Below, in pieces: positions 9,400 through 12,300 of a DNA stretch of 64,000 bases (its first letter is position 1; every line of letters begins with the position of its first letter). The position numbers are program-made. Source of the DNA: Escherichia coli (GTDB lineage: Bacteria > Pseudomonadota > Gammaproteobacteria > Enterobacterales > Enterobacteriaceae); assembly GCF_044324875.1 (NCBI RefSeq), contig NZ_CP172185.1. One strand, written 5' to 3'.

Positions 9400-12300
9400 A
9401 GGAAGCCTGGCCCTTACATACCCCGTTTGTGATTGCTCGGGGAAGTCGCAGTGAAGCGCGCGTGGTGGTGGTTGAACTGGAAGAAGAAGGTATTAAAGGC
9501 ACCGGTGAATGCACGCCGTATCCGCGTTATGGAGAAAGTGATGCCTCGGTAATGGCGCAAATTATGAGCGTCGTGCCGCAATTAGAGAAAGGGCTGACAC
9601 GGGAGGAGTTGCAAAAAATTCTCCCTGCCGGTGCAGCACGTAATGCGCTGGATTGTGCATTGTGGGATCTGGCGGCGCGAAAACAGCAGCAATCGCTGGC
9701 TGATTTGATCGGCATAACGCTTCCCGGGACAGTCACCACGGCACAGACGATAGTCATCGGTATGCCTGATCAGATGGCCAATAGTGCATCAACACTCTGG
9801 CAGGCAGGCGCGAAATTACTGAAAATAAAGCTGGATAACCATCTTATCAGTGAGCGGATGGTGGCAATTCGCACAGCTGTGCCCGATGCGACGCTGATCG
9901 TTGATGCAAATGAATCCTGGCGTGCAGAAGGGTTGGCGGCGCGTTGCCAGCTATTGGCGGATTTAGGCGTTGCGATGCTTGAACAACCGCTTCCTGCGCA
10001 GGACGATGCGGCGCTGGAGAATTTTATTCATCCGTTACCGATTTGTGCTGATGAAAGTTGTCATACTCGTAGCAATCTGAAGGCGCTGAAAGGGCGCTAT
10101 GAGATGGTTAACATTAAGCTCGATAAAACGGGTGGCCTGACGGAAGCGCTGGCGCTGGCGACTGAAGCACGTGCACAAGGTTTTAGTCTGATGCTGGGCT
10201 GCATGTTGTGTACCTCTCGTGCCATTAGCGCCGCTTTACCGCTGGTGCCGCAGGTCAGTTTCGCCGATCTTGACGGACCGACCTGGCTGGCGGTAGATGT
10301 GGAACCGGCGCTTCAGTTTACAACGGGCGAATTGCATCTTTAGGATGCCAGCGCAGCAAGTTTGCCATCGCAAAGAGATATTTTTCGCTGGCTTCGTCGG
10401 AGGAGATGGGCGGAAACTCTGCGGTTATGCAATGCAGGTTGAGATCCGCACACCAACTACCGAAAGAGCCAGGTGTTTCATAACCGACGCTGGTTACCAG
10501 AGGCAATTCAAACGCCTGGGCCAGCCATTCGCCTAATTCACTGTGTCTGGGATCTTCAATACAGGCCAGCGGATCGTGGAATGAGACCACCCAGGCGGGT
10601 TGAATGCGGTGTATAAGCTGGCACAGCGCCTGGGTTTCAGGTTCGGAGCCAGGTTTGTCACCTGTCAGCAATACGACATCACGTTCTTCAGCGGCGCTGT
10701 TCCAGCGATAAACGGTTTCACCTTCCTTCCAGTTTGCCGCCGGAAAGTTTCTGTTTAAATCCACACCATTAGCATTGGCCCTTAACCCCAACTGGCAGCC
10801 GTCAGGATTCACACACAGCACCACATGATGACGGCGCAAAGAAGGTGTCAACGTCCGCAGAGCACAGGAGAGCGTGACGATCGAAGAGTTTTCATCACCG
10901 TGAGTGCCAGCCAGAATCAAACCACTTTCGCGGCTGGCTGCAGGGGCAGGAAACCAGATTAACGGCGCGCCCAATAATGAACGTCCGTAATGTTCTGTTC
11001 CGGGCGGAAATGCGCCGCGTTCGGCGCGTGGGCGAGTTACGGTCATGATCGTCTCTGGTTCAGGAAGTATTACAGGCAGTGTTGTGCAAATTTTGCGGAT
11101 TATCAAATCCTTTTCTTCAACGCTATGTCATCGATCTTGTATCACTTTTTTGCCGGAAGTTGTTTGCATTTTCATTGATGTGCAGATATTAGAATTGTCG
11201 TAATGTTATATACATGGCGTATTTTATTCTTACTGGTTCTACACATATTAATCGCATCTGATTGATCAGTTCACCTTAATAAGTTTAATAAATCGTACTG
11301 CACATAGTACAGTACGATGGTGGCTATATAATTGATTTACATGAAGAATGGCTTATCACCATCAGTCCCGGGTTGATTGATGCCTATATTCTCACCAATG
11401 TGTTTCTCAGGTTTATCGATGATATCTGTAATTAATGCTGCGACACTCTTACGTGATACGATCGTACCTTTGAATGGTTCATTGCGTGAGGTAAGCTCAT
11501 AATCAATAATATCTTCATCGGTCAGCCAGGCAGGGCGAAGAATTGTATATTCCAGTCCAGAAGCCTCAATTGCATCCGCAGCCCTGCGGAATGGTTTTAG
11601 GGGTTCACCAATAACTGCATTATTCCATTCGCCAAATTTTCCTGGAACTTCATCATAAATACCGAGGGAAAGAACAAAGATCAGACGTTTAACATCACAG
11701 GCTTTCATCGCAGCGATCACTGAATTTGCCTGAATATCTAAATCTTCCCCCGTAAGGTTGGCATACACAACATCCTGTCCCTGCATGGCCTGCTTCAGTG
11801 CTGCATGATTCAGTACATCCCCCATAATAATCTTGCTATTAGTGGGATAGGGTTTGTGGATTTTTGCTGGCTGACGGGCAAATAAAGTTTGTTTAATGGT
11901 TTGTTTATCTGCCAGTTGATTAATCACATGGCGGGCTATCTGACCGCCAGCACCAAGAATCAGTACATTTTTCATGAAACTTTTCCCAGATTATTGGCAG
12001 CAATATGCCAGGCCATATCACTATTACGGATTTGAATATGTTTCATTACAGAGTTTCCTCAAAGAACGGCGCTAATACTGAAATTGCTTCAGCCACATAG
12101 ACTTTGCCGTCATAAAGATCCATATGGTTTGCGCCTTCAACAATGTGATAGCGTTTATCCTGGCTTGATGCTCGATCGTACAGGTCGTCACTCATCCATT
12201 TGCTCCCTGCCTGGCTGCCCGCCACAATCTGTATCGGCTGAGTCAGGTACACTTCCGCCATATGGTAAGCATCATAGGTAATAATCTGGTTAAGGCTGCG

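Follow-up and report, generated by a model that had tools for sequence, protein, structure and literature searches.

Introduction

Convergent genes whose coding ends overlap are a described class in Escherichia coli, where 58 convergent CDS overlaps have been counted (Lillo & Krakauer 2007; PMC2174442). In that study, the phase (123:132) was the commonest, accounting for 49% of convergent overlaps of at least 5 nt, and mutation of a stop codon was the favoured origin of convergent overlaps. Other described systems concern the transcripts rather than the coding ends. These are the excludons, surveyed genome-wide in E. coli with ExcludonFinder (PMC12288877), the convergent E. coli pair mscL-arfA (PMC10070815), and the suppression of antisense read-through by Rho (Adams 2021; PMC7815308), where 'Antisense' occurs more often than any other label in the table rows listed.

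Here, we analysed the convergent genes ycjG and mpaA in a window of 64,000 nucleotides from E. coli (contig NZ_CP172185.1). MpaA frees meso-Dap from the murein tripeptide and leaves L-Ala-D-Glu, a dipeptide that YcjG then epimerises (PMC9928106), and PgrR represses both transcription units (PMC5934670). The initial annotation had described a 26-bp overlap of the two 3′ ends, placed both enzymes in one murein-peptide degradation route and proposed an antisense or transcriptional-interference coupling between them. The common route is borne out by the consecutive steps of the two enzymes on the murein tripeptide, and the other two claims are considered below.

Results

The coding ends of ycjG and mpaA

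Both ycjG and mpaA are genuine protein-coding genes located on opposite strands (Table 1). YcjG matches the NCBIfam equivalog NF011708 with 673 bits (cutoff 343) over residues 1-321 of 321, and PDB 1jpd over its full length. MpaA matches the equivalog NF007897 with 479 bits (cutoff 157) over residues 1-236 only, as well as PDB 5hxd, whose 237-aa chain ends in ...HPKD. The 3′ end of ycjG reads ...GAA TTG CAT CTT TAG on the + strand and that of mpaA ...CGC CCG TTG TAA on the - strand, and over the shared bases the protein tails are YcjG ...(F)TTGELHL-stop and MpaA ...(P)KDAIRPL-stop. The overlap is in phase (123:132), with codon position 1 opposite position 1 and position 2 opposite position 3.

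Table 1. Features of the ycjG-mpaA locus (window positions)
Feature	Position	Strand	Remarks
ycjG CDS, L-Ala-D/L-Glu epimerase, 321 aa	9378..10343	+	Stop TAG 10341-10343; ORF list, NCBIfam NF011708, PDB 1jpd, RefSeq
mpaA CDS, murein tripeptide amidase, 242 aa	10318..11046	-	Stop TAA, complement of 10318-10320; ORF list, NCBIfam NF007897, PDB 5hxd, RefSeq
Stretch shared by ycjG and mpaA, 26 bp	10318..10343	both	Contains both stops; read from the sequence and the ORF list
YcjG codons Phe313-Thr314 (TTT ACA)	10317..10322	+	All synonymous spellings TTY ACN give TAA or TGA in the mpaA frame
ycjG-strand RNA antisense into mpaA, putative read-through	10344..10918	+	C>G stretch at about 10650-10850; published Rho region
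p19-captured 21-22 nt sense/antisense duplexes inside mpaA, RNase III products	10843-10863, 10897-10918	both	Huang 2020 Supp. file 7
GC hairpin GCGCCG-AACG-CGGCGC followed by ATTTC	11007..11027	-	39 nt into the mpaA ORF; Term-seq 3′ end

The sequence, the ORF list and RefSeq agree on the 26 bp, confirming the first reading of the locus. The identical overlap is present in the RefSeq annotation of strain MEI003, in that of K-12 MG1655 (ycjG 1388930..1389895, mpaA 1389870..1390598) and in 3 further diverse E. coli genomes, while the locus itself is carried by 5413 of 5426 complete E. coli genomes. An annotation artefact was ruled out, because the overlap is set by the two stop codons alone and the choice of start is irrelevant. 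The overlap is already known, being part of the reference annotation.

The overlap's length is unremarkable and no greater than expected by chance. Among the 29 window genes used as the null set (MEI003 CDS coordinates, validated on the window to about 31.9 kb), antisense reading from the 3′ end continues for a median of 48 nt before a stop, and runs of at least 26 nt occur in 76% of the genes, or 86% in the phase of ycjG and mpaA. Of the 9 convergent pairs within the initial 50 kb of the MEI003 annotation (coordinates in agreement with the window up to about 13.9 kb), 2 overlap.

Constraint on the protein tails

The C-terminus of YcjG, ...F(T/S)TGxLHL-stop, is conserved (here ...FTTGELHL). 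MpaA varies in sequence after ...LLRW, where it is unalignable between genera, and its total length ranges from 235 to 245 aa. Its last five residues are missing both from the NCBIfam profile (237 positions) and from the 237-aa chain of 5hxd. Inside the overlap, 15 differences leave YcjG unaltered but change MpaA, none shows the reverse pattern and 4 change both proteins; these counts are pairwise and phylogenetically non-independent. Purifying selection was found on the YcjG segment alone rather than on both segments, as dual coding would entail.

Depending on the frame, the antisense of ycjG closes after 4, 26 or 108 nt. The closure at 26 nt lies in the Phe313-Thr314 codons of YcjG, which give the mpaA stop TAA in the window (TTT ACA) and TGA in K-12 (TTC ACG). 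Because any TTY ACN yields an antisense stop, the mpaA stop is fixed and the overlap is capped at 26 nt. The Phe-Thr dipeptide is kept in Escherichia and Citrobacter.

The junction across relatives

Across Enterobacterales, ycjG and mpaA almost always lie tail to tail. Among 27 gammaproteobacterial loci with the convergent pair, the junction shows overlaps of 4, 10, 19, 21, 26 and 29 nt, or gaps of 3, 9, 36, 72 (Acerihabitans) and 160 nt (Vibrio). An overlap of 26 nt is found in Escherichia and Citrobacter, and most relatives have one of 4 or 10 nt, with the 4-nt class present in Serratia, Yersinia, Pluralibacter and Mangrovibacter. In Pantoea, 26 nt is reached by the opposite route, through a lengthened YcjG tail. 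Overlap length varies and is not conserved across relatives. Separately, Enterobacter sp. BIGb0383 has an apparent 247-nt overlap, which looks like a stop loss or a frameshift in the assembly.

A pattern scan revealed no intrinsic or bidirectional terminator near the junction. Single-sequence folds of the junction are ordinary (z = 0.12 and -1.83), alignment folds of 19 species show no conserved structure on either strand (-0.75 and -0.77 kcal/mol, 0 compensatory pairs), and Rfam gave no match over 8600-11500 at E up to 1. An inverted repeat at 10344-53 and 10386-95 (32-nt loop) consists of conserved MpaA codons, is disrupted in C. werkmanii and was rejected as an element. An ancestral terminator was likewise discarded, as the scan found none in the wider gaps of Vibrio (160 nt) or Acerihabitans (72 nt). 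The Vibrio gap holds a hairpin-like repeat that lacks a U-tract.

Transcripts across the junction

Each mRNA carries its own stop codon and must therefore span all 26 bp, so that transcripts ending ahead of the overlap on both strands are impossible. The pair ycjG-mpaA is one of the 165 convergent excludons that ExcludonFinder reports for MG1655, with the call made in at least 50% of 58 MG1655 transcriptomes (PMC12288877). However, such a call is nearly automatic when coding ends overlap and is by itself no evidence of regulation.

On the ycjG strand, the Adams 2021 data (PMC7815308) list a Rho-dependent region with its peak at MG1655 1390286, which corresponds to about window position 10734, about 390 nt into antisense mpaA. 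The entry in its Supp. file 2 gives 47/14 without and 58/68 with bicyclomycin (BCM), a score of 3.94 and p = 7.2e-5, with 47 reads in the 800 nt ahead of the site. We computed a GC skew of -0.15 to -0.31 on the + strand at 10650-10849, coinciding with this region. The C-rich, G-poor composition calculated here and the bicyclomycin sensitivity taken from the literature both point to Rho-dependent termination of read-through. Among the entries listed in Adams 2021 (PMC7815308), the mpaA strand has no equivalent Rho region, and no discrete 3′ end is mapped for its RNA beyond mpaA. Within mpaA, a Term-seq 3′ end, labelled 'internal mpaA', is listed at 1390559(-) in Supp. files 1 and 3 of that study (PMC7815308); its hairpin sequence is also present in the window and may limit the upstream transcription that reaches the overlap.

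The sequences of both p19-captured duplexes were found exactly in the window, with published read counts of 205/160 for the duplex at 10843-10863 and 104/315 for that at 10897-10918 (Huang 2020). In the same study, antisense RNA over mpaA amounts to about 0.42 of ycjG sense RNA per nt and antisense RNA over ycjG to about 0.11 of mpaA sense RNA per nt; each of these levels is one RPM value, and all come from a single study in rich medium, a condition under which both units are repressed by PgrR. Sense RNA of ycjG and mpaA falls rather than rises in rnc-14 and rnc-38 (Huang 2020 Table S1c), which weighs against mutual decay mediated by RNase III. In pgrR itself, a poly-A tract at window 13867-13873 may reflect either a sequencing error or a genuine truncation of the repressor.

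Combined, these data lend partial support to the initial interpretation as a whole. Complementary transcripts exist and, in published data, extend far past the 26 nt, as indicated by the excludon list, the Rho region and the p19 duplexes. A regulatory coupling is unsupported, given the variable overlap length, the free MpaA tail, the shared repressor PgrR and the lack of a rise in rnc mutants, and the overlap as a dedicated regulatory device is not supported.

Discussion

Origin of the overlap and alternative explanations

We consider it likely that the 26-bp overlap arose incidentally, by displacement of a stop codon at a junction with neither spacer nor terminator. The tail-to-tail order of ycjG and mpaA appears to predate the divergence of Enterobacterales, and no spacer would be preserved because no intrinsic terminator lies between the genes. 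The functional ends of YcjG and MpaA would then abut, with the ycjG frame governing the evolution of the shared bases. Past ...LLRW, MpaA may be a dispensable tail that runs to the first in-frame stop antisense to ycjG; in Escherichia and Citrobacter, this stop would be the one encoded by Phe313-Thr314 of YcjG, giving 26 nt. That 26 nt is found instead of 4 or 10 presumably stems from a frame change of 1 nt in the tail of mpaA. Lacking a terminator, each mRNA would end within the partner gene, and the two mRNAs would consequently be complementary over hundreds of nucleotides. According to the published data, Rho stops the ycjG-strand RNA a few hundred nt into antisense mpaA, and part of the ycjG/mpaA duplex is cut by RNase III. 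Given the low expression and the shared repression by PgrR, MpaA and YcjG levels are probably little affected overall.

Against this reading stands the persistence of near-zero spacing across many genera, which could reflect selection for transcriptional overlap and not deletion bias alone. Excludon pairs are also more syntenic than other pairs (ExcludonFinder, PMC12288877).

An arrangement in which convergent transcription itself is selected, with colliding RNA polymerases and duplex cleavage by RNase III letting each gene damp the other and thereby tuning or balancing the two enzymes, seems unlikely to us, even though several observations speak for it. Besides the published convergent list (PMC12288877), the Rho region inside antisense mpaA and the tight convergent order kept across Enterobacterales, p19 duplexes fall in mpaA, dsRNA reaches 55-112 RPM over mpaA and 25-54 RPM over ycjG, and both genes have an antisense/sense ratio of about 0.2, compared with 0.03-0.1 for tpx, ycjX and tyrR (Huang 2020). 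However, expressed genes with overlapping CDSs must have overlapping transcripts, which makes the listing close to automatic, and the sense RNAs drop in rnc mutants instead of rising. The classic cases pair opposed roles, whereas ycjG and mpaA belong to one pathway under one repressor. Moreover, low expression should make collisions rare, and the junction has no conserved sequence or structure. A related proposal holds that the absence of a spacer and a terminator was selected, so that upon PgrR derepression head-on transcription and duplexes cap or balance the induction of MpaA and YcjG, or else mpaA transcription passes across antisense ycjG into tpx, forming a noncontiguous operon; we regard this as rather improbable.

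The last possibility can also be considered by itself. In ExcludonFinder Table 1, 'mpaA-ycjG-tpx' is among just three noncontiguous operons named for E. coli (PMC12288877), a listing that would place mpaA and tpx on a single minus-strand RNA, antisense through all of ycjG, and would link peptidoglycan recycling to thiol peroxidase. In line with this, among the rows listed in Adams 2021 Supp. file 1 (PMC7815308), those for the mpaA-internal 3′ end (1390559) and for the terminator of tpx (1388306) are neighbours, with no minus-strand 3′ end between them, and abundant dsRNA at the 5′ end of tpx indicates that ycjG is overlapped at its 5′ side too (Huang 2020). Nevertheless, this reading is very unlikely: mean antisense coverage of ycjG is just about 11% of mpaA sense, tpx RNA lies roughly 10-fold above mpaA RNA, so that tpx is driven by its own promoter (Huang 2020), and neither gene is named in the SMRT-Cappable-seq supplements. 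The listing, for which no single-molecule read is cited, may merely reflect that ycjG takes part in one convergent and one divergent overlap. Finally, antisense mpaA RNA could start at a promoter of its own, located at or within the junction and hosted by the overlap, instead of coming from ycjG read-through. A sigma-70-like TTTACA-18-TAGGAT (9/12) at 10317-10346 (+) lies exactly over the overlap, and the p19 duplexes lie 100-180 nt past the peak of the Rho region. Yet the 2 promoter-like sites found are at chance level compared with 2.8 in shuffled sequences, the -35-like hexamer is dictated by conserved YcjG codons, and the coverage upstream of the Rho site in the Adams 2021 entry fits transcription coming from ycjG, making such a promoter highly improbable.

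Significance of the overlap

The overlap alone carries little weight; it stands in the reference annotation, and the pair is already on a genome-wide list of overlapping transcripts. Under the preferred reading, stop-codon displacement, it is a worked example of how a convergent CDS overlap can combine one constrained frame (ycjG) with one free-running tail (mpaA), and of how a conserved Phe-Thr dipeptide hard-codes the stop codon of the partner. Should interference under PgrR derepression prove true, it would offer one of few instances in which co-induced genes from a single pathway damp each other convergently. Convergent interference would then work as a governor built into a pathway whose genes are induced together, and not as an on/off switch between antagonists.

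Comparison with known systems

In comparison with the convergent pairs of Lillo & Krakauer (PMC2174442), ycjG and mpaA likewise are opposite-strand CDSs that share short 3′ ends in the commonest phase. An origin by stop loss or shift fits the series of 4, 10 and 26 nt at this junction, which also has no Rho-independent terminator. The pair differs only in that its 26 nt exceeds the modal 4-nt class (YTAR), a difference that is not essential.

With the excludons, such as Listeria mogR/fli and the E. coli excludome (PMC12288877), the locus shares opposite-strand neighbours, overlapping transcripts and dsRNA processed by RNase III. In contrast to the opposing function or expression of excludon partners, ycjG and mpaA are non-antagonistic genes of the PgrR regulon that act in consecutive steps, and their overlap begins within the CDSs and not in long UTRs. 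The pair mscL-arfA (PMC10070815) is also an E. coli tail-to-tail pair with complementary mRNA 3′ regions, and it too is found in the ExcludonFinder list. However, antisense regulation is the stated conclusion of that paper, while for ycjG-mpaA it is a candidate. Similar to the antisense read-through suppressed by Rho (Adams 2021, PMC7815308), untranslated ycjG-strand RNA ends antisense to mpaA in a bicyclomycin-sensitive region. The one difference is that the ycjG read-through begins inside the partner CDS, because no intergenic spacer separates the two genes.

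Coding Sequences at the ycjG/mpaA Junction

The convergent 26-bp overlap of ycjG and mpaA described in the initial annotation is borne out by the sequence, the ORF list and the RefSeq annotation, which carries it identically in MEI003, K-12 MG1655 (1389870..1389895) and three more diverse strains. Being part of the reference-genome annotation, with the transcript overlap also published, it is already known. Across 9300-11200 the E. coli window matches strain MEI003 at 100% identity, and 5413 of the 5426 complete E. coli genomes contain this locus. Both genes are genuine, with NCBIfam equivalog matches of 673 bits (ycjG) and 479 bits (mpaA) and PDB matches to 1jpd and 5hxd, respectively.

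Features at and around the junction (window coordinates unless indicated)
Feature	Position	Strand	Remark
tpx	8753..9259	-	
p19 duplex	9219..9239	+	antisense to first 20-40 nt of tpx, upstream of ycjG
ycjG CDS	9378..10343	+	end ...TTG CAT CTT TAG
Stretch common to both CDSs	10318..10343		26 bp, both stop codons included
Imperfect inverted repeat	10344-10353 / 10386-10395		
C-rich, G-poor stretch	10650-10850	+	
Rho termination region	~10734	+	MG1655 1390286, label 'antisense mpaA'
p19 duplex sites in mpaA	10843-10863; 10897-10918		21-22 nt
GC hairpin	11007..11027	-	GCGCCG-AACG-CGGCGC then ATTTC; 39 nt into mpaA ORF
mpaA CDS	11046..10318	-	end ...CCG TTG TAA
SDR-family oxidoreductase gene	11337..11975	-	intact, 212 aa; between mpaA and ycjY
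pgrR	13104..13877		1-nt deletion in poly-A run, ~13867-13873
Rac prophage region	~31900 to at least 49000		MEI003 genes intR, xisR, ralR, recET, kilR, sieB, racR, ydaSTUV
sieB (+)/ydaF (-) overlap	~39800..39803		4 nt; MEI003 annotation coordinates, sieB position did not validate on window

How long the overlap runs is not beyond chance expectation. In a null model that entered 29 window genes from their 3' ends on the antisense strand and went on to the first stop, the median run was 48 nt and 76% of the runs were at least 26 nt long; for ycjG, the three possible antisense frames stop after 4, 26 and 108 nt. The observed phase (123:132), in which ycjG codon positions 1, 2 and 3 lie opposite mpaA positions 1, 3 and 2, is the commonest among convergent overlaps of at least 5 nt (49%), and 58 convergent CDS overlaps were counted in E. 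coli (PMC2174442). Over the initial 50 kb annotated in MEI003, where coordinates agree with the window up to ~13.9 kb, two of nine convergent pairs overlap, namely ycjG/mpaA and the Rac prophage pair sieB/ydaF, which likewise appears in the ExcludonFinder list.

The junction encodes nothing further. No terminator-like site near it emerged from the pattern scan, Rfam gave no match, and single-sequence folds were unremarkable (z = 0.12 on the plus and -1.83 on the minus strand). Alignment folds of 19 species 3' of each stop yielded -0.75 and -0.77 kcal/mol with zero compensatory pairs. The neighbouring inverted repeat was rejected as an element, as it is made of conserved MpaA codons and is not kept in C. 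werkmanii.

Constraint and Evolution of the Overlap

The YcjG C-terminus ...F(T/S)TGxLHL* is kept throughout Enterobacteriaceae; MpaA is conserved to ...LLRW (residue 233) and is unalignable beyond, with total lengths of 235-245 aa. The NCBIfam MpaA profile of 237 positions covers residues 1-236, and the crystallised E. coli chain 5hxd (237 residues) ends at ...HPKD, thus without the last five overlap-encoded residues. When K-12, E. albertii and two Citrobacter were each compared with the window, 15 overlap differences were silent in ycjG and non-synonymous in mpaA, none was the reverse and four altered both proteins, these being pairwise, non-independent counts. Two positions of the overlap distinguish the window from K-12, and neither change alters YcjG: one gives TAA (window) versus TGA (K-12) as the mpaA stop, the other Leu (window) versus Ser (K-12) as the last MpaA residue.

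With any synonymous spelling of YcjG Phe313-Thr314 (TTY ACN), mpaA meets TAA or TGA in frame, which sets the overlap at exactly 26 nt in every case of that frame relation. The 4-nt-type stop (cTAA) persists in E. coli out of frame for mpaA, which suggests that the mpaA tail changed frame by 1 nt in the Escherichia/Citrobacter lineage and so acquired the 26-nt overlap.

With one genome scanned per species, mpaA turned up in many lineages; among 32 gammaproteobacterial loci (L003-L034), ycjG is convergent and directly downstream in 27. The overlap measures 26 nt in Escherichia albertii, two Citrobacter and two Pantoea, 10 nt in Enterobacter, Pseudocitrobacter, Kluyvera, Superficieibacter, Pseudescherichia and others, 4 nt (tTAG/tTAA) in Pluralibacter, Serratia, Yersinia and Mangrovibacter, and 19, 21 or 29 nt in isolated lineages, while gaps of 3, 9, 36, 72 or 160 nt occur in Enterobacter sp. 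Ag1, Hafnia, Microbulbifer, Acerihabitans and Vibrio. The close tail-to-tail arrangement is thus old, but neither overlap length nor sequence is conserved. In the two Pantoea loci (L023, ~2705-2730; L026, ~3683-3708), an extended YcjG tail (...ITAASVAD) enters the conserved MpaA C-terminus, so this overlap length arose there independently, by the reverse route. In Enterobacter sp. BIGb0383 (locus L013, 3001..3951), no stop closes the mpaA frame until 247 nt into ycjG, apparently through a frameshift or a lost stop in the assembly concerned.

Published Transcripts across the Junction

Each mRNA must include its own stop codon, so the two transcripts cannot both end before the overlap if they are translatable. 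Published MG1655 (U00096.3) positions were converted by subtracting 1,379,552. The Rho region antisense to mpaA (score 3.94, p = 7.2e-5) has upstream/downstream reads of 47/14 without and 58/68 with bicyclomycin (Adams et al. 2021, PMC7815308), and it coincides with the sole clearly C-rich, G-poor plus-strand stretch. This indicates that ycjG-strand transcription passes the overlap and runs ~390 nt into antisense mpaA. No table entry of that study names ycjG, so that neither a discrete minus-strand 3' end nor a Rho region antisense to ycjG is mapped there. A strong Term-seq 3' end of the same study (MG1655 1390559, 27317 reads) falls on the hairpin inside mpaA, which may be an attenuator within the ORF or a short 5' mpaA RNA.

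Wild-type RNA-seq gave 51.2 RPM sense and 10.0 RPM antisense for ycjG, and 73.9 and 17.6 RPM for mpaA (Huang et al. 2020, PMC7373196). Calculated per nt, mpaA antisense works out at ~0.42 of ycjG sense and ycjG antisense at ~0.11 of mpaA sense. In that study, p19 captured RNase III-derived duplexes of 21-22 nt at the two mpaA sites tabulated above.

The pgrR Allele and Neighbouring Differences

Both ycjG and mpaA are under PgrR repression, as pgrR encodes a LysR-type regulator that represses ycjG and ycjY-ymjDC-mpaA (PMC5934670). The poly-A run is A7 in the window pgrR and A8 in MEI003 and K-12, and the frameshift leaves an ORF of 257 instead of 299 aa. About 50 of 5233 E. coli genomes, of unrelated origin, share the exact 81-mer with the A7 allele, which may equally be a recurrent homopolymer slip or a homopolymer sequencing error. 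A genuine truncation would leave the two convergent units derepressed in the window strain.

At the place of the oxidoreductase gene, K-12 MG1655 holds only ymjC and ymjD remnants, which indicates a deletion in K-12's copy of the mpaA operon. From intR onward, MEI003 CDS coordinates no longer validate on the window, so the window strain differs there by indels or different prophage content; further differences from MEI003 lie at 5262, 12748 and 13053.

Interpretation of the Overlap

The overlap is probably a neutral by-product. A stop codon would have been displaced at a junction with neither spacer nor terminator, giving the CDS overlap; transcription would end Rho-dependently inside the partner gene, and the resulting antisense effects would be small and incidental. 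A selected interference device seems unlikely. The ycjG-mpaA pair is indeed one of 165 convergent excludons in ExcludonFinder (PMC12288877), which requires that coverage-defined transcript boundaries overlap, something two expressed genes with overlapping CDSs can hardly miss. Against such a device, and against regulatory coupling generally, stand the evolutionary lability of the junction in overlap length and sequence, the common repressor, the low expression and the shared pathway; the initial annotation rightly placed both enzymes in one murein-peptide degradation route, where they catalyse consecutive steps (PMC9928106). Moreover, RNase III loss raises neither mRNA: mpaA sense RNA falls to 41.6 (rnc-14) and 21.6 (rnc-38), and ycjG sense RNA to 39.0 and 33.5 (PMC7373196). 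Of the antisense or interference coupling suggested earlier, the complementary RNA thus exists, but coupling as a function is not supported. It is decidedly improbable that induction of both enzymes, once PgrR repression is lifted, is restrained or balanced by convergent interference, a reading on which the pgrR allele of the window bears.

A genuine noncontiguous mpaA-tpx operon is very unlikely: mpaA-ycjG-tpx is one of three such operons in ExcludonFinder (PMC12288877), but the low antisense signal over ycjG relative to mpaA sense argues against it. That the junction hosts its own antisense promoter is more doubtful still, as the sigma-70-like match TTTACA-18-TAGGAT that spans the overlap occurs at the frequency expected by chance in the pattern scan.

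Upstream of ycjG, the second-listed p19 duplex (88,301 reads) in the available portion of Supplementary file 7 of Huang et al. 2020 (PMC7373196) maps to the tpx 5' end, so a ycjG-strand RNA begins inside tpx. Such a start fits the tpx-ycjG pair published as one of 16 divergent excludons in ExcludonFinder (PMC12288877).
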